In this document: positions 612-29,054 of the stretch, one piece after another | How positions within the stretch are numbered: the stretch's first letter is position 1 | Layout: each line of letters begins with the position of its first letter | Source: an uncultured Chloroflexia bacterium | Lineage (GTDB): Bacteria; Chloroflexota; Ktedonobacteria; Ktedonobacterales; JADMIN01 | Reading direction: 5' to 3' | DNA: 32,000 bases | NCBI GenBank assembly: GCA_963718915.1 | Contig: CAVRAI010000001.1 | Span: 390,001 to 422,000, forward strand | The notes under the pieces: model-generated | Told to the model about the DNA's origin: nothing | Databases searched by the model: none | Seen by the model: the letters and a program-made list of their open reading frames with translations, nothing else | Program-made: the position numbers and the translations under genes

Positions 612-1007
612 TCAATTCGCGGTCATGACAATCTGTCTGGCCCAGCGCAGGACGACCCGCGCGTTATCCAGTAGTTGCTGCGCGGTGTCGGGGCCAACCG
701 CGTCGTCAGCCAGCTCGGCAGGCAGATCATCCGTCAGGAAATTGGCTGGATGATAGGGCGTCAGCGTATCCAGGATATCCAGCAGGTCGGGCGGCGCGTT
801 CACCAGCATACCCAGCGCGCGCAGGTCGTGATCGTAGGTGGCGCGCGCGTCGTGGCTGAGCACGTAGACCGCTTGCAGCGACTTCTCGGCCACCTGATTC
901 GCCAGGTCGGCGCAGTTATAGTAGTTGGAGGCAGCCAGCGCCAGACCCGCGCTGGAGTGATCCTGCGCCGCCTCCGCCCAGATGCCCAGCGCCTCATCGA
1001 GACTCAT
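612..1007 (-). CDS. HEPN domain protein (orphan; no adjacent nucleotidyltransferase partner seen)
   Basis: 131-aa helical ORF with an AAGGAGG RBS 9 nt upstream (revcomp of 1016-1022). It has AEKSLQAVYVL...HDARATYDHDLRAL, which gives an R-x4-H motif (R55, H60) at the position typical of HEPN domains. Confidence 0.7.
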   Translation of the reverse strand: MSLDEALGIWAEAAQDHSSAGLALAASNYYNCADLANQVAEKSLQAVYVLSHDARATYDHDLRALGMLVNAPPDLLDILDTLTPYHPANFLTDDLPAELADDAVGPDTAQQLLDNARVVLRWARQIVMTAN

Positions 1008-1252: not shown

Positions 1253-2590
1253 TCAACTCGCCAGGTCGGCGGCCAGAATGGCAGGCAACTCGGCGATGGC
1301 GACGCGGCGCTGCGCCATGCTGTCGCGCTCGCGAATCGTCACCTGCTGATCCTCCAGGCTCTGGAAATCCACCGTGATGCAGTACGGCGTGCCGATCTCG
1401 TCCTGCCGCCGGTAGCGCTTGCCGATGTTGCCGCCGGTATCGTCGTACTGCGTCAGGCCCAGCCCGCGAATTGAATTGTGTACCTCGTGGGCCAGATTCA
1501 CCAGCGGCTCCTTGCGGGAGAGCGGCATCACCGCCGCCTTCACCGGGGCCAGCTTCTTGCTCAGCCGCAAGACCACGCGCTTCTCCCCCTCGACGATCTC
1601 TTCGTCGTAGGCGTCGCAGAGGAAGGCGAGCGAGGTACGGTCGGCGCCCGCGGACGTCTCGATAATGAACGGCACATAGCGCCGCTGAGTGGCGTCATCG
1701 AAGTAGCTCAGGTCTTTGCCGCTGAACTCGATGTGCCGCCGCAGGTCGAAGTCCGTCCGGTCGTGAATGCCCTCGATCTCGCGCGGGCCGAACGGGAACT
1801 CGTAATAGACATCCACCGCCGCGCGGGCATAGTGCGCCAGTTCGTCGGGGCCGTGCGGATGGAAGGTGAGATGGTCGCGCTTTATGCCGAGATTGAGATA
1901 CCACTGGAACCGCTGCTCACGCCAGTAGTCGAACCACTGCGTCTCGGACTCGGGGTCGATGAAAAACTGCATCTCCATCTGCTCGAACTCGCGCATGCGA
2001 TAGGTGAAGTTGCCGGGGCTAATCTCGTTGCGGAACGCCTTGCCGATCTGCGCGATGCCAAAGGGCAGCTTCCGGCGCATGCTCTGCTGCACGTTCTCGA
2101 AGTTGACGTAGATGCCCTGCGCCGTCTCTGGCCGCAGATAGACCAGCCCGGCATCCTCTTCGATTGGCCCCATGTACGTCTTGAACATCAGGTTGAACTG
2201 GCGCGGCGCGGTGAGCGTGCCACGCTTGCCGCAGGTGGGGCAGACATCTGGGTCGCCGCTCATCTCCTCCACATGGTCGGCGCGGAACCGGCCCTTGCAG
2301 TTGGTGCAGTCCACCATCGGGTCGGTGAAGACATCCTCATGGCCAGATGCCTGCCAGACACGGCGCGCCATCAGGATGCTGGCGTCCAGGCCCACCACAT
2401 CATCGCGCACGCGGGTCATTGTATCCCACCAGCTGCGCTTGACGTTGTTCTTGAACTCGACGCCGAGTGGGCCATAGTCGAAGACCGCGTTGATTCCGCC
2501 GTAGATTTCGCTGCTGGGGAAAATGTAACCGCGCCGTTTGCACAGCGAGATTATGTCCTGCATTCGGTCGTTGCTTGCGCTCTTATCCAT
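1253..2590 (-). CDS. glyQS: Glycine--tRNA ligase (class II, dimeric GlyQS type)
   Basis: MDKSASNDRMQDIISLCKRRGYIFPSSEIYGGINAVFDYGPLGVEFKNNVK... is the hallmark GlyRS N-terminus, and the C-terminal anticodon-binding region is present. I prefer the ATG at 2590 (RBS GGAGCGGGGGAAGG just upstream) over the GTG at 2614 given in the ORF track. Confidence 0.95.
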   Translation of the reverse strand: MDKSASNDRMQDIISLCKRRGYIFPSSEIYGGINAVFDYGPLGVEFKNNVKRSWWDTMTRVRDDVVGLDASILMARRVWQASGHEDVFTDPMVDCTNCKGRFRADHVEEMSGDPDVCPTCGKRGTLTAPRQFNLMFKTYMGPIEEDAGLVYLRPETAQGIYVNFENVQQSMRRKLPFGIAQIGKAFRNEISPGNFTYRMREFEQMEMQFFIDPESETQWFDYWREQRFQWYLNLGIKRDHLTFHPHGPDELAHYARAAVDVYYEFPFGPREIEGIHDRTDFDLRRHIEFSGKDLSYFDDATQRRYVPFIIETSAGADRTSLAFLCDAYDEEIVEGEKRVVLRLSKKLAPVKAAVMPLSRKEPLVNLAHEVHNSIRGLGLTQYDDTGGNIGKRYRRQDEIGTPYCITVDFQSLEDQQVTIRERDSMAQRRVAIAELPAILAADLAS

Positions 2591-2693
2591 ACGTACCTTC
2601 CCCCGCTCCATCACAGCGATGAGCCACGGCTACCATGTGGCTATGCCTCGCCAGAGTGTCCTCGTGATCCTCGCTGGCAGAGACGCGATGCGC

Positions 2694-2729
2694 AAAAAAA
2701 GGAAGGCGGGGGAACTCGCCCCTGCCTTC
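2694..2729 (-). terminator. Intrinsic-terminator-like hairpin plus U7 tract inside the glyQS 5' leader
   Basis: Minus strand reads GAAGGCAGGGG-cgaguu-CCCCCGCCUUC followed by C and UUUUUUU. That is an 11-position stem with one C.A mismatch. It lies about 60 nt after the predicted TSS and about 100 nt before the glyQS ATG. Confidence 0.6.
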
Positions 2730-2793: not shown

Positions 2794-2822
2794 ATTCTAT
2801 CCCGTGCGGGGAGGGCTGTCAA
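2794..2822 (-). promoter_or_regulatory. Sigma70-type promoter for glyQS leader (TTGACA-17-TAGAAT)
   Basis: Minus strand has TTGACA (2822-2817), a 17-nt spacer and TAGAAT (2799-2794). This is a near-consensus match by eye. Confidence 0.6.
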
Positions 2823-2831
2823 TGACGGTAC

Positions 2832-2913
2832 CTGGCACGAATAGTGTTGCGTGAACCCGTATCTACGGTATAATGCGCGCGGCACTACCCGGCACATCAG
2901 GAGGCGTCCGGTG
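2832..2913 (+). promoter_or_regulatory. 82-bp repeat copy 1: TTGCGT-16-TATAAT promoter plus conserved 40-nt leader, pointing into the 3' end of the minus-strand TIR gene
   Basis: 76/82 identical to 4880-4961 by hand alignment. -35 at 2847-2852 and -10 at 2869-2874. The 50 nt TACGGTATAATGCGCGCGGCACTACCCGGCACATCAGGAGGCGTCCGGTG are identical in both copies. Confidence 0.6.
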
Positions 2914-3037
2914 TTGAGCTTTGCTCTCACGCGCTGATCATCCTGAAACGAATTGCACCTCATTGTACTCATGCCCAGCCATCGCATAGCAGAACATGGA
3001 TTCGCATCTTCACAAAGTTTATATGATCCACTTAAAA

Positions 3038-4681
3038 CTAGGCACTCTCTGTTAGCCTACTCAAAAGGCCACGCATTTCAAGCTCCCTCTTATGGAGAAG
3101 ATCTGCCATATCATAATCTTGATGTTGTAAGGCAATGTCTTTCTCGAACATAAGGGCTTCTAGCGCTTGCGGGATTGATAGTTTTTCGGCGTTTTCAGAG
3201 CTTCCAGAATTCTTAAGCGCTTCGATAACAGCTGCCCGCACCCTTTCGAGATTGACACCTAGAGCTTCCAGCACTCCAGCGGCGATGCCCTCACCCTCCC
3301 GCACCATTCCCAAGAGCAAATGCTCGGTACCAACGTAGTGATGGTTCAGTCGCCGTGCCTCATCAACTGCAAGCTGGAGTATTGTTTTGGAGCGTGGCGT
3401 CAACCCTATCTGGCTCGATTCAACATGGTCGCCACGCCCAATGATAAATTCGACAGCACTACGCACCTTGCCAAGTTCGATTCCCAACTTGGCCAATACC
3501 CTGCCAGCTACTCCGTTGCCTTCACGTACCAGTCCTAGCAATAGATGTTCGGACCCAATGTAGTTATGCTCGAAGCGCCGCGCTTCATTCTCTGCCAGGT
3601 GCAACACAGAGTGAGCACGCTCAGTAAAAAAGTCTAATTTGTCAATATCACCAGGCGTACGGTATGATTCAAACGACATGTCTGGCAAGCTTCTCTTCAT
3701 TAACAGTGATTTGCCAGCAATCCCATCTTCCGCTTGCCGTTTCCATCCCTGCCATTCGACACTTGTGGCATCGAATTGGACCCCACGCTGACAGACTTTC
3801 AACGCTTTGTCCCATTGGCCGAGCGCGAGTAACCACTGCACCTGTTCTCGCAAGATTTGTTCGCGCTTCTCTCGTCCATGGGTGCAGACATAGGCATTCT
3901 CCCAGGCCAATTGGGCTGCTTCAATATCTGGTGCGTCCTGGGCCATCAGCCATCGTGCCAATATTTGCCAGTAATCGCCCCTGAATTCATTTATTTCTAG
4001 CGCGTGCCGCAGATTCGCAAGCGCATTTTGCTGTTCGCCAAGCCTATATTGGGCTTGAGCCAATTCTGCATAAATGCGCTCATCGCGCGTGTTATCAGAA
4101 AATACGAGCGCCCTTTGCGCAAAGAGCATTACATCGTGCCACAGTTCCTGGTGAAAAGCCTCATGCACCTCATTGGCCAATGCAAGTGAACGTTCTGCCT
4201 GAGGGGCTAGTGCTAATGCATCTTTATCAGTTGCGCGCTCTGAAGCGGTTCCACTAATTACGCGTCCTGAGCTCTGCCAGTGAGCTTCCAGGATGTCTGG
4301 CGGCTGTTCTGGTGAGAGATCCACCTGTTGGAATAGATGCAGGAACGAGGAAAGTCTGCTGATGTCGGTCCGTGTCAGGGTTGGATCAATACTTATAGGG
4401 ATAATGCGATGAGTACGGACCGAAAAGGTTAGATCAAGCGCGAGGCGTGTTTCTGCGCGAACCCAGGTCGCCACGACACTATGTTTAGAGAGGACAAGAA
4501 GAAAGATTGGACGACCCTCCAACTCCGTCTGTATACGGTCGAGCCAATCATCTCCGCTCTGCAGTTGCTCGCGGTCATAGAATGCGTCCATGCCCATAGT
4601 CGCTGTAAGCCACGTGTAAAGACGTTCACAAAAAGGGGTATCGAAATGCGAGTGGCTAATGAAGATTTTTTCCCCTGCCAT
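3038..4681 (-). CDS. TIR - TPR-like repeats - double Clp_N repeat - UVR-like motif fusion protein (547 aa)
   Basis: TIR: KIFISHSHFD and LLVLSKHSVVATWVRAE (Glu77). TPR-like helices span aa ~165-315. Clp_N x2: ARRFEHNYIGSEHLLLGLVREGNGVAGRVLAKLGI and ARRLNHHYVGTEHLLLGMVREGEGIAAGVLEALGV. UVR-like: KDIALQHQDYDMADLLHKRELEMRGLL. RBS GAAGGGA lies 7 nt before the ATG. Confidence 0.85.
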   Translation of the reverse strand: MAGEKIFISHSHFDTPFCERLYTWLTATMGMDAFYDREQLQSGDDWLDRIQTELEGRPIFLLVLSKHSVVATWVRAETRLALDLTFSVRTHRIIPISIDPTLTRTDISRLSSFLHLFQQVDLSPEQPPDILEAHWQSSGRVISGTASERATDKDALALAPQAERSLALANEVHEAFHQELWHDVMLFAQRALVFSDNTRDERIYAELAQAQYRLGEQQNALANLRHALEINEFRGDYWQILARWLMAQDAPDIEAAQLAWENAYVCTHGREKREQILREQVQWLLALGQWDKALKVCQRGVQFDATSVEWQGWKRQAEDGIAGKSLLMKRSLPDMSFESYRTPGDIDKLDFFTERAHSVLHLAENEARRFEHNYIGSEHLLLGLVREGNGVAGRVLAKLGIELGKVRSAVEFIIGRGDHVESSQIGLTPRSKTILQLAVDEARRLNHHYVGTEHLLLGMVREGEGIAAGVLEALGVNLERVRAAVIEALKNSGSSENAEKLSIPQALEALMFEKDIALQHQDYDMADLLHKRELEMRGLLSRLTESA

Positions 4682-4719
4682 GGATAAATCCCTTCAGAAC
4701 GCTTTTGCGGTTCATGGCA

Positions 4720-4748
4720 ATTGTAACTCTAGTAGCTTCCTACGTCAA
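4720..4748 (-). promoter_or_regulatory. Sigma70-type promoter of the TIR-Clp_N gene (TTGACG-17-TACAAT)
   Basis: Minus strand has TTGACG (4748-4743), a 17-nt spacer and TACAAT (4725-4720), about 40 nt upstream of the ATG at 4681. Confidence 0.55.
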
Positions 4749-4879
4749 ACATGCATTAATCACTTTTTGGAAGATGGTTGGCTACCTAATCTGCATAAGT
4801 CTCTTGGGACAGGAGGTGCCGCATCGTGAAGACTGGCAGCGTAAAACCTAACTTGCCTTTGTACGACAAGGCTGTGCAG

Positions 4880-4961
4880 CTGGCACGAATAGTGTTGCAT
4901 GGATGCGCATGTACGGTATAATGCGCGCGGCACTACCCGGCACATCAGGAGGCGTCCGGTG
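4880..4961 (+). promoter_or_regulatory. 82-bp repeat copy 2: TTGCAT-16-TATAAT promoter plus conserved leader upstream of the 5011 gene
   Basis: Direct repeat of 2832-2913. -35 at 4895-4900 and -10 at 4917-4922. The leader continues about 50 nt to the ATG at 5011. Confidence 0.6.
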
Positions 4962-5010
4962 AACGGGGCATGCGGGGACACGCGGGGGCGCGTGAAGAAA
5001 AGGCAGGGGC

Positions 5011-5793
5011 ATGGGCGAGGATACAGAACAACGCGATGTCATGGTCGAACCGGAAGAGACGCCCAGAGAGAGCAAGAACCCATCGTCGCCCACCGCATCG
5101 GATCAGGCGGCTGATGAGCCGCGACTGGTGCGGCGAATCGCTCCGTGGGCGATGGCGGTCATCGCGCTGATCCTCGTCGGTATGCTGGCGTTGCTCTTCG
5201 CGGACACACACTCGACCGACGCCGCCGTGCGCCTAACGCCGACCGCCACGCCCGCGCCGACGATTACCCCCGCGCCGACGGCGACGCCAGAGCCAATCGA
5301 TGGCTTCCAATTCTATCGCGATCCCGCGAGCCACTTTATCATCCAGTATCCCCTGAACTGGGAGGTCTCCTCCGATAACACGAGCCAGGGCATCGAGTTT
5401 TGCGACGACTGCACGAATCCCGGCTATATCGTTCAGGTCAACACGCCGAGCAATCTGGGCGATGTTGGGCCGCCACCCAACCAGAGCTCCGCCGCCGACT
5501 GGGTGACCTATGCGTTGAATGGACTCGCCTCGCATCTACAATCCGGCACCCTGACGGTGCAAGGCCCACAGCAGGCCATCGTGATCGGCGGGGTGGTCTG
5601 GCAGAGCGGCGGCGCGACGGTCTCTGACAGCAGTGGCGGCGCGCGCTTCCGGGTGCAGGTCTATGCGACGGTCTATGAAGGGAAGCCCTACATTCTGGTA
5701 CTCTCTACCACAGAGGATCGCTTCACCGCCGGAACCATTCAGTTCTTTGGGCCAATGCTGCAGAGCTTCGAGTTTATTCCGCAGACGCCGTAG
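5011..5793 (+). CDS. Membrane-anchored hypothetical protein: acidic N-terminus, one TM helix, Pro/Thr linker, extracytoplasmic alpha/beta domain
   Basis: 260-aa ORF. TM helix WAMAVIALILVGMLALLF and linker TPTATPAPTITPAPTATPEP. The C-terminal domain (FIIQYPLNWEV...YILVLSTTEDRF) resembles PsbP/DcrB-like folds, but I cannot confirm that. Confidence 0.6.
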   Translation: MGEDTEQRDVMVEPEETPRESKNPSSPTASDQAADEPRLVRRIAPWAMAVIALILVGMLALLFADTHSTDAAVRLTPTATPAPTITPAPTATPEPIDGFQFYRDPASHFIIQYPLNWEVSSDNTSQGIEFCDDCTNPGYIVQVNTPSNLGDVGPPPNQSSAADWVTYALNGLASHLQSGTLTVQGPQQAIVIGGVVWQSGGATVSDSSGGARFRVQVYATVYEGKPYILVLSTTEDRFTAGTIQFFGPMLQSFEFIPQTP

Positions 5794-8890: not shown

Positions 8891-9142
8891 ATGATGGAGT
8901 CGCTTTCCCAGGTCGTGTTGCTCGTTGATATGCCAGAGCATCGATTGCGCGTAGGTGACGTGGGCGTTGTGGTTGATGTGCATCCGGGCACACCTGCAAC
9001 GGGTAATGTCGCAGGCTATAGCGTCGAGTTCGTTACCATGAGTGGGGAAACGATGGCAGTACTCGAACTTGAAGAAACACAGATACGCCCTGTCCGCTCA
9101 ACCGATATTGCCCATGTGCGCGAGCTTGCCAGCGCCTCGTAA
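8891..9142 (+). CDS. DUF4926-like small protein (83 aa)
   Basis: MMESLSQVVLLVDMPEHRLRVGDVGVVVDVH...YSVEFVTMSGETMAVLELEETQIRP fits the DUF4926 pattern (V.L..DLPE.GL..GD.G.VV.V......Y.VEF....G.T.A...L...Q). The internal ATG at 8891 is preferred because the longer ORF from 8795 starts inside the hairpin repeat. Confidence 0.6.
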   Translation: MMESLSQVVLLVDMPEHRLRVGDVGVVVDVHPGTPATGNVAGYSVEFVTMSGETMAVLELEETQIRPVRSTDIAHVRELASAS

Positions 9143-9165
9143 AGCGTACCCGATAAGGAAAACCT

Positions 9166-9897
9166 GTGACGCCCAACGCCTATTCTTCGCTATGGTTTCG
9201 CCTCTTCATGCCCTTGCAGACAGACGAATCCACCGAGAAGGATGTTGCCTTTCTCGCCCGCCAGCTCCCGCTCCCGCGCTATGTGCGTCTGCTAGACCTC
9301 TGCTGCGGATATGGGCGTCATGCGCTGCGGCTGGCGGAACGTGGCTATCAAATGACAGGGCTGGATCGCGACCCGGAGGCCACCGCCGAGGCTGAGCGCC
9401 GCACGCGCGCGGCAAATCAGCAGGTGACATATCTCGTCGGCGATATGCGCGAGGTAGGCGAATTACCCGGAACGTTCGACGGGGTCATCAACATGTGGCA
9501 GAGCCTGCCCTATTTCGATGAGGCAACCAATGCCGAGGTGCTGCGCCAGGTACGCGGCAAGCTGACGCCAGGCGGGCGCTTCATCGTGGATATCTACAAT
9601 CGCGAGTACTTCGAGCGCAACCAGGGCCAGCGACGCCAGGAGATCGACGGGACGGTAGTCGAATCCGACGGATATATGCAGGGCAATCGCTGGCACTCCG
9701 TGCTGACCTATCGCGATGCGGCTGGCGCAGTCATCGGCGGCGATCACATGGAGTGGCAGATGTTTACCCCGGACGAGTTCGTAGCCCTGGCGTCCGAATG
9801 TGACTTTACCTCGCGGTTGGCCTGCGCCTGGGCGGATGAGAACATCGCGCCAACCCCAGATGTCGCGCGGATGCAGGTCGTCCTTGAGCGCGTCTAA
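9166..9897 (+). CDS. Class I SAM-dependent methyltransferase
   Basis: GTG start with AAGGAA 5 nt upstream. Motif I is VRLLDLCCGYGRHALRLAERG, followed by GLDRD, YLVGDMRE, FDGVINMWQSL and LTPGGRFIVD. Confidence 0.85.
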   Translation: MTPNAYSSLWFRLFMPLQTDESTEKDVAFLARQLPLPRYVRLLDLCCGYGRHALRLAERGYQMTGLDRDPEATAEAERRTRAANQQVTYLVGDMREVGELPGTFDGVINMWQSLPYFDEATNAEVLRQVRGKLTPGGRFIVDIYNREYFERNQGQRRQEIDGTVVESDGYMQGNRWHSVLTYRDAAGAVIGGDHMEWQMFTPDEFVALASECDFTSRLACAWADENIAPTPDVARMQVVLERV

Positions 9898-9899
9898 TA

Positions 9900-10072
9900 C
9901 CGAACCTGGGTGGATTGCCGTCATACGGCGGCAGACCGTAGCGTGGACGCTCCGGCGCTCCGCCTCTCTGGTTTAATCGTCAGGGCCTTGCGCTCTCTCA
10001 GGCTCCGGCACGCTCCTCACAGACAACGGCCCAGCCGGACACGGCATTATTTTGGGTTCACCCGCCTCAACT
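9900..10072. repeat. Degenerate copy of the MITE-like element family
   Basis: The core GACCGTAGCGTGGACGCTCCGGCG..CCGCCTCTCTGG (9934-9972) matches GGCCGTAGCGTGAACGCTCCGGCG...CCGGCCTCTCTGG of the 11940-12098 element. CCGGACACGGCATT (~10035) resembles its arm. The boundaries are uncertain. Confidence 0.35.
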
Positions 10073-11686: not shown

Positions 11687-11784
11687 AGAGACCCGCGGTT
11701 GTGGGAGGCTGTCGTCCCCGCGCACAGCAGGATTCATACCTGTCTCAGACAACCTCTAATATGCGCTGCTACGTCCCTGCGTAG

Positions 11785-11838
11785 TTAATACACCGCATAG
11801 CCGCCGACGACCGCGCGGTGATAGCCCTCGTGCGGCAG
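11785..11838 (-). pseudogene. Remnant: last ~17 codons of a paralog/allele of the GT-C glycosyltransferase gene
   Basis: The minus-strand translation LPHEGYHRAVVGGYAVY* compares with LPHEGYTRAVVGGYVIYYYTG* at 13708-13770. The 39-nt core (11800-11838) is 34/39 identical by hand. There is no upstream gene body. Confidence 0.7.
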
Positions 11839-11939
11839 AGTGTGGCTTTGCCTCGCGACTGATCTGCGCCTGGGCGGATGAGGCCATTCCGCCATCCCCA
11901 GATGTCGCGCGGATGCAGGTTGTCCTTGAGCGAACCTAA
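11838..11939 (+). pseudogene. Remnant: last 33 codons plus stop of a diverged copy of the methyltransferase gene
   Basis: ECGFASRLICAWADEAIPPSPDVARMQVVLERT* compares with ECDFTSRLACAWADENIAPTPDVARMQVVLERV* (9796-9897). The length is the same, 86/102 nt are identical by hand count, and the stop is at the same position. There is no upstream gene body. Confidence 0.8.
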
Positions 11940-12098
11940 TGTGGTTTTACCATGTACGACGGACACGGGAATTGCGGTGGGGTGAGCAGGCCGTAGCGTG
12001 AACGCTCCGGCGAATTTCCCGGCCTCTCTGGCCCATGTGCTGGCAGGTCCCGGCAGGCCCACCCCAGCACGCTGTTCGGGGTTATTTCTAAAACCACA
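11940..12098. mobile_element. 159-bp MITE-like non-autonomous element
   Basis: Perfect 10-bp terminal inverted repeats TGTGGTTTTA (11940-11949) and TAAAACCACA (12089-12098). It is flanked by TAA on both sides (11937-11939 and 12099-12101) and has no coding capacity. Related copies occur at ~21121-21288 and, degenerate, at ~9900-10072. Confidence 0.7.
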
Positions 12099-12265
12099 TA
12101 AGGCGCAGGAACACAGCTCACATGCGCGAGCTTGCCAGCGCCTCGTACGCCGTGACCGTCGTGGATTGGGCCGTAATTACGAAGTCGTCCTGTGCGAACA
12201 TCTCAAGGGAAAGTCTTGCTCGCGCAGTGGGTCATCTCTGTGCTTGCGAAGCCTACGCCTCCATC

Positions 12266-12341: not shown

Positions 12342-13655
12342 GTGGCCAGAGCCATGAGCGCATTTCATACGACCTTCGTCAGCCATGCCCACGTCGATAA
12401 CGACCTCTGCGACCGCTTCGTCGCCGCATTGCGGGCACGCGGGATAGACATCTGGTATGACCGCAACAACGCCCAGGCGGGCCATTTCCTCGACCGGGAG
12501 ATCGAGCAGCAACTGAAGCAGCGCTCCGCCTTCGTCCTGCTGATGACGCAGCAGGCGCTCGACTCCTTCTGGGTGCAACAGGAGCTAGACGCCTATCGCG
12601 GGCTGATGGCGCAAGATCGCGCGCGTCTGCTGTTGCCCGTGCGCATCGGCCCCTGCCAGGTGACGCCGTTTCTCAATGCCCTGCTCTGGATCGACGCGCT
12701 GGCGATGCCCTTCGACCAGGCGCTAGACGAGATCGCCGCCGCGCTGATGGTGCAGGGCGCTCCATCGGCTCAGCCGCCCGTTGTCACACCACCGCCCCGC
12801 GATAGCTTGCCGCCGCTCGGCCCTGCGCCCGCGCCTGCGAATAGCGCGCCCGCGCTGCATCTCACCCCCATGTCGCTTTATAATCTCGGCTTTCGTGGCT
12901 ACCGCGTGAACGGCGTCGAGTGCATCCTGCCACCGCTCTGCCCGGTACCCGGTGGCGTCTTCACGATGGGCAGCGACAAAACCCGTGACCAAGCGGCGTT
13001 TGACGGGGAGACGCCACAATATCCCGTCGAGGTGGATGGCTTCGCCATTGGCCAGCATCCCGTCACCGTCGCCGAGTACGCCTGCGCCGTGCGCGCCAAA
13101 GCGGTACGCGAGCCATCGAAAGTCGCCCACCCTGATGTGGATTGGACGAAGCAGCAGACACACCCCGATCACCCGGTGGTCTGCGTCTGGTGGAAAGATG
13201 TGCTTGCCTATGCGCAGTGGCTGGCCAAGACGACAGGGCAGCGCTGGCGACTGCCGAGTGAGGCGGAGTGGGAGAAGGCGGCGCGTGGGGATGACGGGCG
13301 TATCTATCCCTGGGGCGACACCTTCGACAAGGTTCGCTGCAACACCAGCGAAAGCGACATCAGAACGACGACGCCCGTAGGCAGCTACCCCAGTGGCGAG
13401 AGTCCGTATCACGTCCAGGATATGACTGGCAACGTCTGGGAGTGGACGAGTACGCTGTATCAGCCGTATCCCTACCGTAAAAACGATGGGAGAGAGAATC
13501 CAAATTCCATTGATAGTCGAGTGCTGCGTGGCAGTTCGTGGGTCGGCTACCAACAGAACATGCGCGCAGCCTATCGCCTCCTCGGCCGACCCGCCTTCCT
13601 CCACGTCTACAGCATTGGGGTTCGTCTGGCGGTCTCGGCGCCTGGTTCAGCATAA
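12342..13655 (+). CDS. TIR domain - Pro-rich linker - FGE-sulfatase (SUMF1/formylglycine-generating-enzyme-like) domain protein
   Basis: TIR: TTFVSHAHVDN, IWYD and AFVLLMTQQALDSFWVQQE (Glu81). FGE-sulfatase: GGVFTMGSD, HPVTVAEY, HPVVCVWWKDVLAYAQWL, RLPSEAEWEKAARG, YPWGD, GNVWEWT and RVLRGSSW. An alternative start is the ATG at 12354. Confidence 0.85.
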   Translation: MARAMSAFHTTFVSHAHVDNDLCDRFVAALRARGIDIWYDRNNAQAGHFLDREIEQQLKQRSAFVLLMTQQALDSFWVQQELDAYRGLMAQDRARLLLPVRIGPCQVTPFLNALLWIDALAMPFDQALDEIAAALMVQGAPSAQPPVVTPPPRDSLPPLGPAPAPANSAPALHLTPMSLYNLGFRGYRVNGVECILPPLCPVPGGVFTMGSDKTRDQAAFDGETPQYPVEVDGFAIGQHPVTVAEYACAVRAKAVREPSKVAHPDVDWTKQQTHPDHPVVCVWWKDVLAYAQWLAKTTGQRWRLPSEAEWEKAARGDDGRIYPWGDTFDKVRCNTSESDIRTTTPVGSYPSGESPYHVQDMTGNVWEWTSTLYQPYPYRKNDGRENPNSIDSRVLRGSSWVGYQQNMRAAYRLLGRPAFLHVYSIGVRLAVSAPGSA

Positions 13656-13707: not shown

Positions 13708-15606
13708 CTACCCCGTGTAATAGTAGATGACATACCCGCCGACGACTGCGCGGGTATAGCCCTCGTGTGGCAGCCCCGCAGCCTCCGCAAGTTGGGCGAA
13801 TTGGCGATCCTGCACGCTGCCGAGCGTCAGCAGATAGGCGGGATGAGGCGTCCATGCAAGCTCATCCACCCACGGCTGATAGCGGTTGGCGTTGAGCGTC
13901 AGATTCGGCTGACCGACCTCGCCACGAATCGCGCAGTACAGCCGCTCGTCCACCTCGAAGGCGACACGATAGCATGCCCAGTAGTCGTTGGTGTAGTAGG
14001 CCGTGACCTGATGGGCGTCGAAGAAGGCAATGATCGGGCGATCCACCGGCACAATCGGCTGAGCAAAGCGCGTGGCGTCGCCAGAATAGGCCAGCGTCTG
14101 CGCGCCACCATAGAGGCTGCTCGCCAGCATCCACACCAGCCCCAGCGCCGCTATAGCTGGGACGATCCAGCGTTTCCTTAAGGCGACCTTGCCAGTTGAA
14201 TGCAATGTTGTGCTGCGGCCCCTCCCCTCATAGGGGAGGGGGTAGGGGGAGAGGTTCTTCGCCGCTGACCACAACACGCCGACGAAGAGCGGCGTCGCCA
14301 GATAGAGCGGCAGCAGATAGCGCGCCGAGGTGAATTGGAAGTTGGCGGCGTCACGGCTGGTGAGGAAGAGCGCCAGCGTCAGCAGCGCGATGCCCAGCAG
14401 CATCGCCCGCAGCCAGCGCCGCGCATTTGCCTCAGTATTCGATTGCGCCGCCAGGCGCGCCACCTCGCCCTCTCCGGCCGATTGGATGCGCATGCCGCGT
14501 CGAGCCAGCCAGTCGCGCACGACGGCCAGTTGCGGCGTCAGTCGCAGCCAGAGCCAGAGCCAGCGTCCAAGCTGCCAGGCGACCACACCCAGCAGGAAGA
14601 GCGCGCCCAGCGAGATCATCACGTTCGGCGCCTGACACGCCAGATCGTTTCCGGCGGTGGAACGAGCCATTGCGGGCGGGTAGGAGTCCCAGATGTTGCC
14701 CTGGGTGATACAGACCTGTGGGCTGCCCGCCACCACTGGTAGCCCGGCGGTGAGCGCCCCGGAGGACTGGAGCAGCACGCCCGAAGGATTGCTCTGGTGC
14801 GAAAGCTGTTTGTAGGTGGCGTTGCCGGTCGCGAGATTGAAGCTGATGTAGGGCCACGCGCCGAGCAGCATCCCTACCACCAGCGCCACCCCGGCCAGCG
14901 AGAGCAGCTCGCGCCAGCGTCCGATGAGCAGCGCGCCCGCCGCCACCAGCAGAATCGGCGCGATCAGCATATCTGACCAGAGGCCCACCCCGGCGAGCAC
15001 GCCGAGCGCCGCATAGAACGCGATGCAGCGGAGCCAGCCCGCGCGGCTCGTCGGGCGTGTATAGGGCAGCCGCAGCCGCGACCAGACACCGAGCAGAATC
15101 AGCCCGCCAAGCAACAGCAGCTCCTGATAGCCGCCAATCGGCGCCAGTTGTCGCAGCGTGAAGATCGGCGGGCTGATGACCAGCCACGCGAGCGCCAGCA
15201 ATCCCACCGTCGGCCCGTAGGCGGCGCGCCCAATCCAGTAGACGGTGGCGAGGAAGCCGAGCGTCAGCAGCAGCGCGCTCAGTCCCAGCACGAAGGTGGA
15301 TGAGCCAAAGAGCGCGAAGAGCAGCGCGGCGAAATAGGCCTCGAACGGCCCCATGTAGTTCTGGCCCCAGAAGAAGGTGGGACGCTCGCCGTGCAGGATA
15401 TGGCGCGCCATCAGCCCAATGACCGCTTCATCGCTATCGAGCGCGGGCCAGCCACGCGCCAGCAGGATCAGGCGATAGATGGCCGCCAGCGCGAGCAGGA
15501 GCAGCGCCACGCGCCCCGGCGTCAGCGCGCGCATTGTGGTGCGCAGCAGCCCGCCAGATTGCTTGCCCGGTGCGGCTCGTGATTCGGTCGTCGCGCTCAT
15601 GCCCAT
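13708..15606 (-). CDS. GT-C fold glycosyltransferase, PMT/ArnT-like (GT39/GT83-like) polytopic membrane protein
   Basis: 632-aa ORF with many TM helices. The first loop, WPALDSDEAVIGLMARHILHGERPTFFWGQNYMGPFEAY, carries the acidic pair typical of GT-C enzymes. The C-terminal soluble domain is uncharacterised. The start could be 15606, 15600 or a later Met. Confidence 0.6.
   Translation of the reverse strand: MGMSATTESRAAPGKQSGGLLRTTMRALTPGRVALLLLALAAIYRLILLARGWPALDSDEAVIGLMARHILHGERPTFFWGQNYMGPFEAYFAALLFALFGSSTFVLGLSALLLTLGFLATVYWIGRAAYGPTVGLLALAWLVISPPIFTLRQLAPIGGYQELLLLGGLILLGVWSRLRLPYTRPTSRAGWLRCIAFYAALGVLAGVGLWSDMLIAPILLVAAGALLIGRWRELLSLAGVALVVGMLLGAWPYISFNLATGNATYKQLSHQSNPSGVLLQSSGALTAGLPVVAGSPQVCITQGNIWDSYPPAMARSTAGNDLACQAPNVMISLGALFLLGVVAWQLGRWLWLWLRLTPQLAVVRDWLARRGMRIQSAGEGEVARLAAQSNTEANARRWLRAMLLGIALLTLALFLTSRDAANFQFTSARYLLPLYLATPLFVGVLWSAAKNLSPYPLPYEGRGRSTTLHSTGKVALRKRWIVPAIAALGLVWMLASSLYGGAQTLAYSGDATRFAQPIVPVDRPIIAFFDAHQVTAYYTNDYWACYRVAFEVDERLYCAIRGEVGQPNLTLNANRYQPWVDELAWTPHPAYLLTLGSVQDRQFAQLAEAAGLPHEGYTRAVVGGYVIYYYTG
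14219..14255. repeat. Hairpin repeat, copy c, embedded in-frame in the glycosyltransferase CDS
   Basis: Perfect stem CCCCTCCCC (14219-14227), loop tcata, GGGGAGGGG (14233-14241), then GTAGGGGGAGAGGT. On the coding strand this encodes NLSPYPLPYEGRGRS. Confidence 0.75.
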
Positions 15607-18634: not shown

Positions 18635-18964
18635 CCGACGACACGGACATCTATCCCCATAGACCCCCACAACTTGACGGGAAGAGTAGCCAAAACAGGC
18701 AGACATCCCGGCTATATTCTTGTGCCTGCTTCCTCTCATCGGGTACAATGGCATCCGTCTCAAACTAGATTTCTGGCTATTATCGCATGGCTGCCGAACC
18801 GCTGCCCGCCCTCATTGGCAGGCGGGTGGCCGCTGGCGCAGCCAGGAACGATAGCGCGCCGCACTCATCGCATGCAAACGACATACTAAAACAGTAGATG
18901 ACATCGCACGACTGCATAGTCAAGCATAGTCAAACATACACAAGGACAAAGGGGGCGATTGCCA

Positions 18965-19756
18965 GTGACGACACGGGTATTTGCGATCGCGAATCAAAAG
19001 GGTGGCGTAGGCAAGACCACCTCGACGATAAATCTGGGGGCATATCTGGCGAAAGCGGGCCGCAGAACGCTCATCATCGACCTTGACCCACAGTCCAACA
19101 CGACGACCGGCCTCGGCGTGGATTCTCACGCGGTTGGAACCTCCATCTACGAGGTGCTCGTAGATGTGAGCGTTAACCCCGCCGATGTCATCCGCAAGGA
19201 GATCCGCCCCAACCTCGCGCTCCTCCCGGCCAAGGTCGATCTCTACGCCGCCGATATCGAACTGGTCTATCTGGATAACCGTGAGTACCGGATGCGGCAT
19301 ATCCTCGACCAGATCCGCGACGACTACGAGTTCATCTTGATCGACTGTCCACCGTCGCTCGGCCTACTGACCGTGAACGCGCTGACCGCCGCCGATGGGG
19401 TAATTCTGCCCCTCCAATGCGAATACTTCGCCCTCGAAGGTATGCAACAGTTGCTCAATACCATTCGGCTGGTGCGCGACCGCCTGAACAACAAGGTGAT
19501 GTTGTTTGGCGTGGTGCTGACGATGTTTGACTCGCGGACCAACCTCGCCACAGAGGTGGTCAATGAGGTCAGCCAGCACTTCCCCAAGGAGAAGTTCGAA
19601 ACACTGATCCCGCGCAACGTGCGGCTTTCGGAGGCGCCAAGCTTTGGCCTCACTGTGCTGGAGCACGATCCGCGCTCTCCGGGCGCGCTGGCCTATCAGA
19701 AACTGGCAGAGGAAGTAATCGCTCGCGCAGAAATCATGGAGTCGCTCTATGCCTAA
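18965..19756 (+). CDS. parA: ParA/Soj chromosome-partitioning ATPase
   Basis: VFAIANQKGGVGKTT deviant Walker A, then IIDLDPQSN and LIDCPPSLG. The GTG at 18965 (AAAGGGGG 9 nt upstream) is preferred over the TTG at 18959 in the track. Confidence 0.9.
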   Translation: MTTRVFAIANQKGGVGKTTSTINLGAYLAKAGRRTLIIDLDPQSNTTTGLGVDSHAVGTSIYEVLVDVSVNPADVIRKEIRPNLALLPAKVDLYAADIELVYLDNREYRMRHILDQIRDDYEFILIDCPPSLGLLTVNALTAADGVILPLQCEYFALEGMQQLLNTIRLVRDRLNNKVMLFGVVLTMFDSRTNLATEVVNEVSQHFPKEKFETLIPRNVRLSEAPSFGLTVLEHDPRSPGALAYQKLAEEVIARAEIMESLYA

Positions 19757-20834
19757 ACAACGATTCGGTCTCGGTCGTGGCCTGGATGCGCTGATTCCCG
19801 GCGCCAGCCTCGCCGATGTCGCGCCCCTCTCGGAAGATACGCCGCTCGATTCGAGCCTCTCGCCCTCGTCGGTCTTTGAGGCGCCGATAGACGCCATCTC
19901 GCCGAACCCACAGCAGCCACGCGCCGTGGTGGATGACGATCCGCAACTGCGCGAACTGGCCGCCTCGATCCGCGAGTATGGGCTGCTCCAGCCGTTGCTG
20001 GTGACGATCAGCGGGCAGGACGACCACGGTCCGCTCTTCCAGCTGATCGCGGGCGAGCGCCGCTGGCGGGCCGCGCGACTGGCGGAACTGCGGATGGTTC
20101 CGGTGGTGATTCGCGAGGCAACGCCGCAACTGATGCTGGAGATGGCGCTGATCGAAAACCTCCAGCGCACCGACCTCAACCCGCTGGAAGAGGCGCAGGG
20201 CTATCTGATGCTGATGGATGAGTATGGGCTGACGCAGGAAATGGTCGCCCAGCGCATCGGACGTAACCGCGCCACGGTTGCGAATACGGTGCGGCTGCTC
20301 CAACTGCCCGACGAGGTGCGCGAGGCGCTGGTGACGATGCCCCGCGCGTTCACCGAGGGCCACGCCCGCGCCGTCTTACAGATCAATGGCGACGCGGCGC
20401 GCATCAACGCGATGAAGATGATTATCGCGCAGGGGATGAGTGTGCGGCAGGCCGAAGAACTGGCGCGCCGGTTAAATGAGCGGGCGCTGGGTATCGCCAA
20501 CGACCGCCGCGGCTCGGTGACGCGCACCCAGAGTGGCGAGACGCGCGCGCTGGAGGAGGAGTTCACCCGCGCCGTCGAGATGAAGGTACGGCTCCAGCGG
20601 ACGACCCGCGGCAAGGGCCAGCTTACGCTCTACTTCACCAACGACCAGCAACTCGAAACGCTCTACTCGCGGCTGGTCGGCGCGATGCGCGCCGGGCAGA
20701 ACGGCCACGACGCCTACGCCCTGCTGGACGGCAGCGAGCCATTGAACCTGTCGTACGACGACCTCGCCGACGAAGACGACGACCTGATCGACGACGAGGA
20801 TGACGGAGACGACGGAGATGACGCTGGCGAGTAG
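19749..20834 (+). CDS. parB: ParB/Spo0J partition protein with strongly acidic C-terminal tail
   Basis: GLGRGLDALIP, ISPNPQQPR, LLQPLLV, LIAGERRWRAARLA, the HTH LTQEMVAQRIGRNRATVANTVRLLQLP, and the tail DDLADEDDDLIDDEDDGDDGDDAGE. It overlaps parA by 8 nt. Confidence 0.9.
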   Translation: MPKQRFGLGRGLDALIPGASLADVAPLSEDTPLDSSLSPSSVFEAPIDAISPNPQQPRAVVDDDPQLRELAASIREYGLLQPLLVTISGQDDHGPLFQLIAGERRWRAARLAELRMVPVVIREATPQLMLEMALIENLQRTDLNPLEEAQGYLMLMDEYGLTQEMVAQRIGRNRATVANTVRLLQLPDEVREALVTMPRAFTEGHARAVLQINGDAARINAMKMIIAQGMSVRQAEELARRLNERALGIANDRRGSVTRTQSGETRALEEEFTRAVEMKVRLQRTTRGKGQLTLYFTNDQQLETLYSRLVGAMRAGQNGHDAYALLDGSEPLNLSYDDLADEDDDLIDDEDDGDDGDDAGE

Positions 20835-21120: not shown

Positions 21121-21288
21121 TAGTAAAACGACATCAGAACACCCTACGTCGTGGTGGGCGAGGCAGGCCGTAGCATACATGCATCAATGCTACGGCGAGT
21201 TTCCCGGCCTCTCTGGCCATTTGCTGGCAGGCCCCGGCTTGCTCGCCTCACCGCAATGCCCGTGTCCGTCGTACATGGTAAAAGTACA
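21121..21288. mobile_element. Second copy of the MITE-like element (left boundary uncertain)
   Basis: The core CCGTAGC...GCGAGTTTCCCGGCCTCTCTGGCCATTTGCTGGCAGGCCCCGGC matches 11990-12055. The right arm CACCGCAATGCCCGTGTCCGTCGTACATGGTAAAAGTACA is the reverse complement of the left arm of the 11940 copy. Confidence 0.6.
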
Positions 21289-21437
21289 TCAACCGCCCGT
21301 CTTCACGCGCCCGCCAGCGCGCCGACGCTATAGCAGAAGCGCGGCGATACGCGGTACAATGCGGCGCGGTGCAATGCGGCATCTGGGTACGTTCCCTCCC
21401 CTTGCTGGCCCCGCTGTGCATAGAAGGAGAAGCCGCC

Positions 21438-21997: not shown

Positions 21998-23569
21998 GTG
22001 AGTGACTCGGCCCAGCGGCGGCCTTCCTGGCGGATGGCGCTGATCGTCCTGGCGGTTGCGGTGGTGCTAGCGAGCGTAGGCGCGTTTGCCCTCGTGCGCC
22101 TGCGCCAGCCAGACGCCCCTCAGCCGCGCACAGCACGGACGGCCCAGCGGACGCCCGCTCCGACGTGCGCGCAGCAATCGCCATCATCGTCGTCATCGTC
22201 ATCCTCGGCATCATCGTCATCCTCGGCAACGGCGACGAATATCCGCGTCAGCAACGACGCTTACAGGGCGCACAGCGAGCCGATGCTTGCGATCAACCCC
22301 GCGAATCCGCTCAATCTGGTCGGCGGATCGAAGTTCTTCACCGACCCGGCGCGCTACCGCTTCCAGATTGGCACGTACACCTCCTTCGACGGCGGCTGCA
22401 CCTGGATTGATAACGGCGTATTGCCCGGCTTTGCGCCCGGCGAGACGACCTCCGACGTGACGGTCGCCTTCGGGCCGGAGAATCGCGTCTATATCGCGGT
22501 GCTCTACACCGACAATGTGAGCGATAGCGGCATCGCCGTTTTCACCTCCACCGATGGCGGCAAGACCTTTGGCAAGGCGGTGCCCGCCTATGATGACCCG
22601 ACCGGCGCGGTCTTCAGCGACAAGCCGTGGATCACCGTGGATATGAGCAGCGGCCCGTATCGTGGCAGCGTCTATGTCGTCTGGTCGTATGACTATGGCG
22701 GTACCTGCGGCTTCGAGAACTCCTGCAAACAGGGGGTTGGCTTCGCGCGCTCGGTTGATGGTGGCGCAACGTTTTCGGCGGCGCGTCAGGTGGAGGGCGA
22801 TGCGCCATTCTGCACGAATCCCGCACCGGGGCGCTCGTCCGATGATCGCGCGTGTGACGCTGCGCTGGGCGCGGTTCCAGCGGTTCTGCCCGATGGCACG
22901 CTGGCGGTAGCCTATGACTACATGGATGTCACCAGCAGCGGCAAAATCCCTACGCGCCTCGCGGTCATCACCTCGCCCGATGGCGGCGCGACCTGGACAG
23001 CGCCCGTGTTGATTGCCACCATCTCCGATATTCTCGGCGTCTTTCGGCCAGACCGCTATCGTAACGCCTCGCTGCTCGCCTTCGCCGCCGGTCCAGCGCG
23101 TGGCAGGCTCTACGTCGCCTGGGCGGATAAGCGGATTGGCGATAGCGATATCCTGTTCGCCTCGTCCAGCGATCAGGGTCGGACGTGGTCAGCGCCCGCG
23201 CGCGTCAACGACGATGCCACCAGGGACGGCGCCAACCAGTTCCAGCCGCAGCTTGCCGTCGCACCCAATGGTGTCGTGACCGTCTCATTCTTCGATACCC
23301 GCCGCGATAGCCACCACCATCTGATCGATGTCTACCTGGCCCAGTCGGTGGATGGCGGCGCGAGCTTCCTGCCAAATGTGCGCGTGACCACGCAGAGCTG
23401 GGACCCGACGGTGGACGCGCCTGTCGATGGCAGCGGCCTGCAATTCATCGGCGATTATCAGGGGCTGGCGGTGAGCGACCAGTACGCCCTCCCCTTCTGG
23501 AACGATACGCGCACCGGCAGCCAGGAGATCTTCATAGCGCTGTTCCCGAGCGCCCAACCGCAACACTGA
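21998..23569 (+). CDS. Membrane-anchored BNR/Asp-box repeat beta-propeller protein (sialidase-like fold)
   Basis: GTG start with a GGAGGGAG RBS, an N-terminal TM helix and a poly-Ser linker. Five Asp-boxes are present: STDGGKTF, SVDGGATF, SPDGGATW, SSDQGRTW and SVDGGASF. Confidence 0.8.
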   Translation: MSDSAQRRPSWRMALIVLAVAVVLASVGAFALVRLRQPDAPQPRTARTAQRTPAPTCAQQSPSSSSSSSSASSSSSATATNIRVSNDAYRAHSEPMLAINPANPLNLVGGSKFFTDPARYRFQIGTYTSFDGGCTWIDNGVLPGFAPGETTSDVTVAFGPENRVYIAVLYTDNVSDSGIAVFTSTDGGKTFGKAVPAYDDPTGAVFSDKPWITVDMSSGPYRGSVYVVWSYDYGGTCGFENSCKQGVGFARSVDGGATFSAARQVEGDAPFCTNPAPGRSSDDRACDAALGAVPAVLPDGTLAVAYDYMDVTSSGKIPTRLAVITSPDGGATWTAPVLIATISDILGVFRPDRYRNASLLAFAAGPARGRLYVAWADKRIGDSDILFASSSDQGRTWSAPARVNDDATRDGANQFQPQLAVAPNGVVTVSFFDTRRDSHHHLIDVYLAQSVDGGASFLPNVRVTTQSWDPTVDAPVDGSGLQFIGDYQGLAVSDQYALPFWNDTRTGSQEIFIALFPSAQPQH

Positions 23570-23865
23570 CTTCGGCCATCAAGTCCAACGTCCATAGGCT
23601 GGTCGGAACTAAAGACCAAGCGGGTGCGTTTCAAGCGAACGTGCTTTCGCGTCCCAAACAGATGTAGGGGGCTTACCCGCTGATGCAATGCTTGCCAGCC
23701 TACAAATTTGGCGCCCAGGCTAGCATTGTCCTCAACACCCCCAACAAAAAAACCAGCTACGGCATATAACACTATGAGAGGCATTCAACACTTCGAGCGT
23801 TGCACTTCTCAACACTCGACCGACCCACCATTGGCGAAACGCTCGGCCAGGGCAAGAAGGAAGGG

Positions 23866-24513
23866 ATGGAAAGCGTGATCTCCCGAGAGGATGCTGATGA
23901 TGCCCTGGCATTGCGCCGCTGTCAGCAAGGTGATGTTTCAGGGCTAGAAGTGCTCGCAGCGCGCTACCAACTGCGAGCCATCCGTATCGCTTATCTGCTA
24001 CTGCGGGACCACGCTGCTGCAGAAGATGTAGCACAAGACAGTTTCCTTCGCGTCTTTCAGGCAAGCGCGCAGTTTCACGAGGGAACGCAATTCGCCCCAT
24101 GGTTCTACCGCATTGTGTTAAATACTGCGCGTCAATACCAGCGCACATTGCGTCGGCGGCGAGAGAGCAGCCTTGATATTCTAATGCTCTCGGATGCCAC
24201 CAGCCCCCAGCTGCCTCTCGCGGAAGATCCCTTTGTGAGTGCGGAACAGACAGAGAGGCGCGCTGCCGTGCTAGATGTGCTCATGGCATTAACGATCAAA
24301 CAGCGTGAGGCGCTTGTCCTCCGATACTTCTGCGGCCTGAGTGACAGCGTCATTGCGCAGATCCTTAATTGCCCTCACGGCACAGTTCGCTGGCGCCTGC
24401 ATGCGGCGCATCGCGCGTTTGAGCGCGCCGCATCTACCAGATACCCGTGGCTCCTTGACCGTGAGAGCCCACTTTCCCAGGTATTAGCACGAGTTGAAGG
24501 AGGAACGAACTGA
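23866..24513 (+). CDS. ECF-type sigma-70 family RNA polymerase sigma factor
   Basis: Region 2: AEDVAQDSFLRVFQASAQFHEGTQFAPWFYRIVLNTARQYQR. Region 4: LTIKQREALVLRYFCGLSDSVIAQILNCPHGTVRWRLHAAHRAFE. The start at ATG 23866 is tentative. Confidence 0.85.
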   Translation: MESVISREDADDALALRRCQQGDVSGLEVLAARYQLRAIRIAYLLLRDHAAAEDVAQDSFLRVFQASAQFHEGTQFAPWFYRIVLNTARQYQRTLRRRRESSLDILMLSDATSPQLPLAEDPFVSAEQTERRAAVLDVLMALTIKQREALVLRYFCGLSDSVIAQILNCPHGTVRWRLHAAHRAFERAASTRYPWLLDRESPLSQVLARVEGGTN

Positions 24514-25688: not shown

Positions 25689-25852
25689 GAGTGAGTGCTG
25701 AGGTTCACGCTCTCCATCGGAGCGGAGCCGACACCCCGATTCCCATCGAGGCCAACACACATTTCAGCAAGAGAAAGAAGCATGCGCCTGCGTAGAAATG
25801 CGAATAGCTCCCGTGCTCAGGCACACCAGATAGACAGCTGCCGGAATCGCCA

Positions 25853-26279: not shown

Positions 26280-26551
26280 GGACGCTCCTTTCAGTGCATG
26301 GCATCATGACTTCAAAATGCAAGTATGACGCTCAATGAGGCTGACACGTTTTGCGTACACGAAGCCAACTCAAGAATTCGCGACTCTCACCGGTGATGTT
26401 GGTCGTGGCGTTCGTTAGCAGGAGGCATTCAGAGACAGAGCCAATCTAGGAGATCGCACTTATCGGCGCAGTTCTGACGGGACTGGGCCAGAGTACTGGC
26501 GCTTTCAAAGATTCTCAAAACCAATACGTACGTCAGCATGGTCGAGAAATT

Positions 26552-29032: not shown

Positions 29033-29054
29033 GCTTCCTCTCCTGAGCGGTACC

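Follow-up and report, generated by a model that had tools for sequence, protein, structure and literature searches.

Homology-facilitated illegitimate recombination, known from the natural transformation of Acinetobacter, Pseudomonas stutzeri and Streptococcus pneumoniae, has been described together with additive gene arrays that retain leftover stubs (PMC5361080). Additive "orphan" arrays of this kind occur at type VI secretion system (T6SS) effector-immunity, Rhs and contact-dependent inhibition (CDI) loci (PMC5361080). Here, we analyze a 2-kb insertion that carries a TIR-domain gene and lies between 82-bp direct repeats. It is found in a 32,000-nucleotide stretch of an uncultured Chloroflexia bacterium of the order Ktedonobacterales (contig CAVRAI010000001.1, positions 390,001 to 422,000), which we call the window and number from its first nucleotide. 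As in the described systems, foreign DNA appears to have been added without a dedicated recombinase, leaving stubs of host sequence as direct repeats. Homology on one side and microhomology on the other, the hallmark of homology-facilitated illegitimate recombination, can be seen directly at a second TIR insertion 7 kb away. At both loci the insert is absent from relatives and the duplicated flanks are homologous to the recipient, the two features by which additive recombination is recognized. The locus also departs from its precedents. Orphan arrays duplicate a conserved segment of a toxin gene, whereas the part duplicated here is intergenic and holds the promoter and leader of a gene of housekeeping type. 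Similarly, the usual outcome of homology-facilitated illegitimate recombination is deletion or replacement, whereas here it is duplication.

A repeat search of the window recovered two direct copies of an 82-nt block, spaced 2,048 nt apart and identical at 76 of 82 positions (93%; Table 1). Nineteen identical nucleotides are followed by a 13-nt patch that holds all six mismatches (2851, 2854, 2856, 2857, 2860 and 2863) and then by 50 further identical nucleotides. This reproduces in full the layout worked out by hand in a preliminary description of the window. Six mismatches would cluster this tightly in any 13-nt stretch of the 82 with a chance of about 3e-4. The 50-nt block, TACGGTATAATGCGCGCGGCACTACCCGGCACATCAGGAGGCGTCCGGTG, is present exactly twice in the window, compared to no matches in 100 shuffles. 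Similarity ends abruptly at the repeat edges: in Smith-Waterman comparisons, the sequences outside the 82 nt scored no better than shuffles. Both copies contain the promoter-like arrangement TTGC(G/A)T, a 16-nt spacer and TATAAT. The preliminary description confined the divergence to this spacer, which holds for five of the mismatches but not for the first (2851 G, 4899 A), which is position 5 of the −35 hexamer. A generic promoter scan listed neither copy because the −35 element fits the consensus at just three of six positions.

The repeats sit between two core genes, glyQS (class II glycyl-tRNA synthetase) on the left and a gene for a PsbP-like membrane-anchored protein on the right, which we also call the 5011 gene. 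We compared this region with 12 related contigs (L001, L002 and L005–L014) that represent at least five lineages and share 83–91% nucleotide identity with the window. L001, L002 and L005–L008 come from soil metagenomes and Ktedonobacterales genome bins and were reached through homologues of the 5011 protein; L009–L014 were added by scanning metagenome and genome collections with the block itself. One further JGI contig was viewed as a gene map only. In all 12 contigs, glyQS and the PsbP-like gene are divergent neighbors roughly 340–390 bp apart, and the block between them is single-copy. In BLAST alignments, homology between the window and its relatives halts at 2913/2914 and restarts at 4879–4881, and the left and right flanks each align to the same 82 nt of every relative. 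The sites are therefore empty in the way that the preliminary description had predicted for an acquired cassette, and no relative carries two repeat copies.

The same comparison identifies what was duplicated. Across an alignment of eight sequences, TATAAT, TGGCAC and TGTT never vary, nor does much of the leader. The relatives have the spacer of the right copy; that of the left copy is unique. We interpret the block as the native promoter and conserved leader of the PsbP-like gene and, because its spacer is the one found in relatives, the right copy as the working promoter of the 5011 gene, the role it had been given at the outset. The glyQS gene has a promoter-like site of its own, whose −35 hexamer (2817–2822) stops 9 nt short of the left repeat edge (2832).

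The DNA between the repeats also differs sharply in composition from its surroundings. Its G+C content (GC) is 49.9%, compared to 62.8% and 63.1% in the flanks and 63% in the genome. The hand counts that had first pointed to a compositional break (25 G+C in 3061–3120 and 44 in 1261–1320) are exact on recount. At third codon positions the contrast is stronger: GC3 is 0.50 in the TIR gene and 0.77–0.86 in the HEPN, glyQS, PsbP-like, spermidine-synthase-like and purA genes. Given this foreign composition and empty sites in at least five lineages, an insertion in the lineage of the window is the sole reasonable reading. Judged from these alignments, loss in all other lineages would be far less parsimonious than one insertion. 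The suggestion that the cassette arrived by recombination that duplicated the glyQS/5011 promoter region, one of two put forward initially, is well supported by the relatives.

As first described, the minus-strand TIR gene is the sole credible gene in the insert. Read from the upstream edge, the insert consists of a terminator-like hairpin, a promoter-like site, a ribosome-binding site, the TIR gene and 124 nt of 3′ sequence in which there is no recognizable terminator. The hairpin looks like the end of a donor-genome gene, and the cassette as a whole appears to be an arbitrary chromosomal fragment, with none of the traits of a dedicated mobile element. We found no terminal inverted repeats or transposon ends at the insert, no tRNA genes at the site or in the window, and no match to a phage or plasmid. 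Pfam scans of the larger open reading frames (ORFs) of the window revealed no integrase, transposase or other recombinase. A donor for the 50% GC cassette was not found among homologues or in the phage and plasmid searches.

The cargo protein combines a TIR_2 domain, TPR repeats and two Pfam Clp_N matches. Its C-terminal 140 residues form a complete ClpC-type N-domain (E = 2e-43 to ClpC1 N-domain structures). By eye, we judge its C-terminal tail to be UVR-like; the tail has no Pfam match in the cargo protein. Residues W73-V-R-A-E77 align with a W-x3-E stretch in the TIR chains 9m0n_A and 3h16_A of the PDB. We take this stretch to be the catalytic-glutamate motif of TIR domains, and the cargo domain thus carries the conserved glutamate by which a TIR is predicted to be NADase-competent. 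The closest full-length homologues, from other Ktedonobacteria, share 58–60% protein identity and about 68% nucleotide identity. They are 63% GC genes in high-GC hosts, located in unrelated contexts and without flanking repeats. One relative, P0116, is 66% identical to the TIR-TPR front but has an FGE-sulfatase C-terminus in place of Clp_N; it too is a high-GC gene. This pair indicates probable swapping of C-terminal modules. Clp_N-domain proteins and TIR plus FGE-sulfatase proteins both belong to very large Ktedonobacterales families, with several paralogues on single contigs and varied partners (kinase, GerE, DinB, UVR).

TIR, FGS (FGE-sulfatase) and ClpN modules have been catalogued in conflict systems of multicellular bacteria (PMC7159879). 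The cargo protein resembles such TIR immune and conflict proteins in carrying repeat or ligand-binding modules (TPR, ClpN) fused to the TIR domain and in belonging to expanded families of a filamentous lineage. With the bacterial TIR immune effectors (Thoeris ThsB, TIR-NLR/STAND and TIR-SAVED) it shares a TIR_2 domain with W-x3-E. It nevertheless differs from each of them. Unlike Thoeris, it has no SIR2/Macro-SLOG ThsA partner, its neighbors being glyQS and the PsbP-like gene, and its match to ThsB is weak and partial (E = 3.6e-4, residues 5–37). Unlike TIR-NLR and TIR-STAND proteins, it contains TIR_2, TPR and Clp_N alone by Pfam, with no STAND/NACHT NTPase; the PADLOC TIR-NLR match spans only the TIR domain. 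Unlike TIR-SAVED, it lacks a SAVED domain, and the gene stands alone. Several PADLOC TIR models match the TIR domain weakly and no system partner is present, whereas the TIR-TPR-ClpC-N fusion fits no PADLOC model beyond that domain. The cargo is best described as a candidate immune-type sensor-effector fusion of an uncharacterized kind.

The second TIR gene in the window, which encodes a TIR_2 plus FGE-sulfatase protein, gives a clearer view of how such DNA may be added. Its TIR domain is 30% identical to that of the cargo protein. The insertion is absent from all four relatives that span the site (L006, L007, L009 and L012). In L007, a methyltransferase gene is followed by a 650-aa gene with no cargo gene, and in L009 a DUF2252 gene lies between the two. 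In the window, the order is methyltransferase, DUF2252, a stub of the 650-aa gene, a methyltransferase stub, the TIR-FGE gene and a 632-aa gene. The 3′ end of the methyltransferase gene (9790–9898) is repeated at 11832–11940 (109 nt, 83% identity), and that of the 632-aa gene (13731–13773) at 11796–11838 (43–63 nt, 88%). The two stubs overlap at 11822–11838 in a 17-nt imperfect microhomology, TAGCCCTCGTGCGGCAG, as expected of an illegitimate junction. Measured from repeat to repeat, the units at this locus are 2,042 and 1,935 bp, near the 2,048 bp of the first locus.

Stubs joined at a microhomology are what homologous pairing together with an illegitimate junction is expected to leave. The donor was probably a relative with a TIR-FGE gene between the same two host genes, whose DNA was added rather than swapped. 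One homologous interaction and one microhomology junction would suffice. Equivalently, a circle of about 1.9 kb closed at the microhomology could have integrated by a single crossover. The two closest homologues of the second TIR gene with readable context, P0176 (77%) and P0180 (72%), lie in unrelated contexts. Upstream of this gene, a 43-nt stub (12116–12158) repeats the 3′ end of the DUF4926 gene (9110–9152) that precedes the methyltransferase, at 81% identity and with a perfectly matched core of 25 nt. This stub is a further remnant of an earlier rearrangement and suggests that additive events have piled up in layers from purA to the 632-aa gene. The content of that interval differs among L001, L006, L007 and L009.

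For the first locus, we favor additive, recombinase-independent acquisition of a foreign TIR unit, with the promoter duplication as a structural by-product; we hold this to be probable, if well short of certain. A foreign expression unit (donor terminator, promoter, ribosome-binding site and TIR-TPR-ClpC-N gene) would have been acquired horizontally and landed in the short intergenic stretch from which glyQS and the PsbP-like gene diverge. Its integration would have duplicated the 82-bp native block with the promoter and leader of the PsbP-like gene. glyQS would thereby have kept its upstream context in the left copy and the PsbP-like gene its full promoter in the right copy. Two routes could produce this outcome. 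The first is homology-facilitated illegitimate recombination, with one homologous anchor and an illegitimate joint on the far side of that anchor. The second is a Campbell-type single crossover of a circularized fragment of about 2 kb that carried a copy of the block. With moderate confidence, we assign to this locus the route seen at the second one because both share a repeat-to-repeat unit of about 2 kb, native direct repeats and the lack of a recombinase. The left copy would then be a relic promoter that still looks functional and probably has no evolved role.

Several points weigh against this account. A microhomology junction is visible at the second locus only, the donor sequence needed to read one at the first not having turned up. 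In its classical form, homology-facilitated illegitimate recombination tends to remove recipient DNA, and duplication is rarer. A homologous anchor would imply a related donor, yet the composition of the cassette is foreign; acquisition would therefore have taken at least two steps, entry into some relative followed by transfer. Six clustered mismatches beside 69 identical positions fit no simple version of the model. Finally, the second locus bears on the first by analogy, and its cargo has native-like GC. We also considered recent replacement of a flank, which would leave a donor-derived tract there. Identity to four relatives, followed in a sliding window, does not shift at the junction and so lends this no support, although the nearest sampled relative is about 91% identical.

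Breakage and repair could generate the same structure even if the incoming DNA shared no homology with the site. A staggered break made by two nicks at a distance of 82 bp, once its overhangs were filled in around a foreign fragment captured by end joining, would leave sharp edges and a purely native duplication. The cassette, which runs from a terminator to a 3′ untranslated region like an arbitrary chromosomal fragment, would suit such a capture. Error-prone fill-in could in principle also account for a local cluster of mutations, although six errors within 13 nt followed by 50 perfect nucleotides are unlike the work of a low-fidelity polymerase. An 82-nt stagger is far above the footprints generally known for transposases and end joining. 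Moreover, incoming DNA at the second locus apparently bore homologous stubs, pointing to a homology-based route active in this genome. We consider break repair unlikely.

The arrangement also invites comparison with transposition, in which purely target-derived sequence is directly duplicated on both sides of an insert. Typical target-site duplications span a few to about 14 bp. The duplication here measures 82 bp, and the insert differs further in having neither terminal inverted repeats nor a transposase.

Direct repeats of tens of base pairs around a foreign island are a classic signature of att sites, and their sharp edges agree with it. The 82-bp block could thus be an att site into which a tyrosine or serine recombinase encoded elsewhere integrated a 2,048-bp cargo-only circle, leaving attL and attR. 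Internal differences between the copies would arise when an element brings its own version of the target. Tyrosine-recombinase islands, including cargo-only satellites mobilized in trans, likewise combine a foreign insert with direct repeats, and their empty sites in relatives hold a single repeat copy. They differ from this locus in that here we see no integrase, no tRNA or transfer-messenger RNA (tmRNA) target and a single 2-kb gene. The Pfam scans of the larger ORFs showed no recombinase gene in the insert or elsewhere in the 32-kb window. Nor does the site behave as a recurrent hotspot: all 12 relatives are empty and none has other cargo, and scans of the metagenome and genome collections produced no further copies of the block. 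The second insertion in the window, with its microhomology junction, has no common att core. Site-specific integration is accordingly doubtful in our estimation.

A different proposal concerns what the duplication does rather than how it formed. Convergent transcription or an antisense RNA from the left promoter could restrain a toxic TIR NADase, with the mismatch patch as adaptive tuning. If active, the left promoter would start transcription near 2881, pass through the 8-codon ORF (VLSFALTR) opened by the GTG of the left copy and run antisense into the TIR gene after about 157 nt. The left copy keeps a perfect TATAAT, five of six native −35 positions and the 16-nt spacing. It faces the 3′ end of the TIR gene, whose stop codon begins 124 nt away, and we found no plus-strand terminator or defined RNA downstream of it. 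The W-x3-E motif, if it is indeed the catalytic-glutamate motif, would fit a potentially toxic NADase. The clustering of the mismatches is significant, and none of them touches the −10 element. Type I toxin-antitoxin and other cis-antisense control likewise sets a promoter against a potentially toxic gene from its 3′ side. Those systems differ in having a defined small RNA and a terminator, which are lacking here, and the promoter here is a copy of a neighbor's, made by the insertion itself.

The history of the two copies argues against such a role. The closest relatives vary at position 1 and at four sites in the leader, yet the two copies agree at all five and therefore appear to derive from recent duplication or gene conversion rather than from long purifying selection. 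This weakens the earlier argument that intact −35, −10 and leader sequences imply maintenance of both copies. The leader has neither significant structure nor an Rfam match, homologous TIR-TPR-ClpN genes elsewhere show no comparable arrangement, and the cassette has a promoter of its own from which it would be expressed regardless. We regard a restraining function as improbable, and the antisense brake as unsupported by the sequence.

The patch itself has several possible origins. The six mismatches fall at positions that are nearly constant among close relatives, which on this alignment is the opposite of neutral decay. The left version, GTGAACCCGTATC, recurs nowhere in the window or in the fetched loci, although three of its six states (2851, 2860 and 2863) reappear in the more distant relatives L005 and L006. 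The patch may be the remnant of a diverged incoming allele whose flanks were later homogenized, the result of a single templated event, or promoter tuning. A hairpin-templated origin gained no support, as the two versions form alternative small hairpins of similar, non-significant stability. A diversity-generating retroelement was also set aside, the changes not being adenine-specific.

The least successful alternative holds the TIR gene to be ancestral together with its two flanking repeats, recombination between which would have deleted it from the relatives. This would leave one copy as observed, but it needs independent losses or one very early loss across at least five lineages at 83–91% identity and repeats that stayed 100% identical at otherwise variable positions, and it is effectively refuted by a GC3 of 0.50 kept in a genome with GC3 near 0.8.

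The conserved leader raised the question of a regulatory element in its own right. The 50-nt block had been proposed as a possible dispersed motif. Searching the metagenome and genome collections for exact and degenerate matches yielded six contigs, all with orthologous single-copy sites, and we rejected the proposal. A structured RNA or riboswitch fared no better. The leader has no Rfam match at the gathering threshold or at E ≤ 1, and single-sequence folds are no better than those of shuffled sequence (z-scores −0.7 and +0.7). Consensus folding of eight sequences with alifold gave a weak hairpin (−6.9 kcal/mol). Both sides changed in 3 of its 10 predicted pairs, in 2–3 of the 8 sequences, too few for covariation. 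A sigma-54 reading of TGGCAC...TTGC was dropped by eye, as the spacing is 3 nt too long.

The repeat ends in a GTG preceded by AGGAGG (AGGAGG-N5-GTG). Relative to the conserved ATG, this GTG is in frame in L001, L002 and L013, out of frame in the window and L011, and absent in L005. Because its frame and presence vary in this way, it is not a conserved start codon. Where in frame, it would add 17–20 codons, and gene callers are split accordingly (260 versus 277 aa). The stretch between the leader and the ATG (4959–5013 in the window, with its homologue in L001, L002, L011 and L013) is G-rich and hypervariable in length.

The locus gives a base-pair-resolved record of how a soil Chloroflexota genome gained an immune-type gene without mobile-element machinery. 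In kind, it is a horizontally acquired islet with an immune-type gene, flanked by a target duplication. Its unusual aspects are the length and content of the duplication (82 bp with a complete promoter and leader), the second stub-flanked TIR insertion 7 kb off with a readable microhomology junction, and the uncharacterized TIR-TPR-ClpC-N-domain architecture. The case also shows how duplicating a promoter can spare the core genes on either side of an insertion into a tight divergent promoter region. If general, the pattern would help to explain how the TIR, FGE-sulfatase and Clp_N families of Ktedonobacterales diversify and move.

A more speculative extension, to which we give little credence as a whole, is that single-gene TIR cassettes of about 2 kb spread through Ktedonobacterales free of recombinases. 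Fragments excised or circularized at microhomologies would carry short stubs of the previous host's flanks and, through one crossover at the matching site in the next host, integrate again. Immune genes would pile up, with promoters or gene ends duplicated, and the duplicated host promoter would also serve as a convergent brake, helping the cell to tolerate an NADase that has just arrived. The two units in the window measure 2,048 and 1,935 bp from repeat to repeat.

Table 1. Features of the two TIR insertions and their native neighbors in the 32-kb window.
Feature	Position	Strand	Description and basis
Inserted foreign DNA	2914..4879		1,966 bp, GC 0.499; absent from 12/12 related contigs
Left repeat copy	2832..2913	+	−35 TTGCGT 2847-2852, −10 TATAAT 2869-2874; from repeat search and direct reading; homology of relatives ends at 2913/2914
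Mismatch patch	2851..2863	+	Left version GTGAACCCGTATC found in no relative
Right repeat copy	4880..4961	+	−35 4895-4900, −10 4917-4922; spacer as in relatives
TIR-TPR-ClpC-N cargo gene	3038..4681	-	547 aa; TIR_2 residues 6-123, TPR ~200-310, 2x Clp_N (Pfam)
Promoter-like TTGACG-17-TACAAT	4720..4748	-	39 nt upstream of TIR start codon; consensus match only
Terminator-like hairpin and T-run	4852..4870	-	Upstream edge of insert; consensus match only
glyQS (class II glycyl-tRNA synthetase)	1253..2614	-	Left core neighbor; ORF and Pfam
glyQS promoter-like TTGACA-17-TAGAAT	2794..2822	-	Consensus match; both hexamers conserved in relatives
PsbP-like membrane-anchored protein gene (5011 gene)	5011..5793	+	Probably served by right copy; ORF and Pfam
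Second TIR gene	12342..13655	+	TIR_2 and FGE-sulfatase, 437 aa; in additive insertion
Stub of 632-aa gene 3′ end	11776-11838	+	Fused to methyltransferase 3′ stub 11822-11940

Other features of the window lie outside the two insertions. The glyQS leader, about 180 nt on the minus strand (2614–2794), is conserved across relatives; within it, a terminator-like hairpin and its T-run (2722..2703) look like an attenuator. The leader has no match to a T-box or other Rfam family, even at E ≤ 1. Just downstream of glyQS is a HEPN-domain gene (612–1007, minus strand) whose position is conserved in relatives. A short intergenic element of about 50–115 nt occurs in three places (11939–12054, 21186–21289 and 9931–9971) and may be a small dispersed repeat. 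At 21186–21289, its two halves are in rearranged or inverted order at 89% identity, with no significant hairpin fold. ParA and ParB are encoded at 18959–20834. Two regions of lowered GC (0.51–0.58) may be other acquired DNA: 23400–27000, with an ECF sigma factor and a DUF4179 protein, and 28600–31000, with a Bro-N protein and an HTH_17 (excisionase-like) protein.

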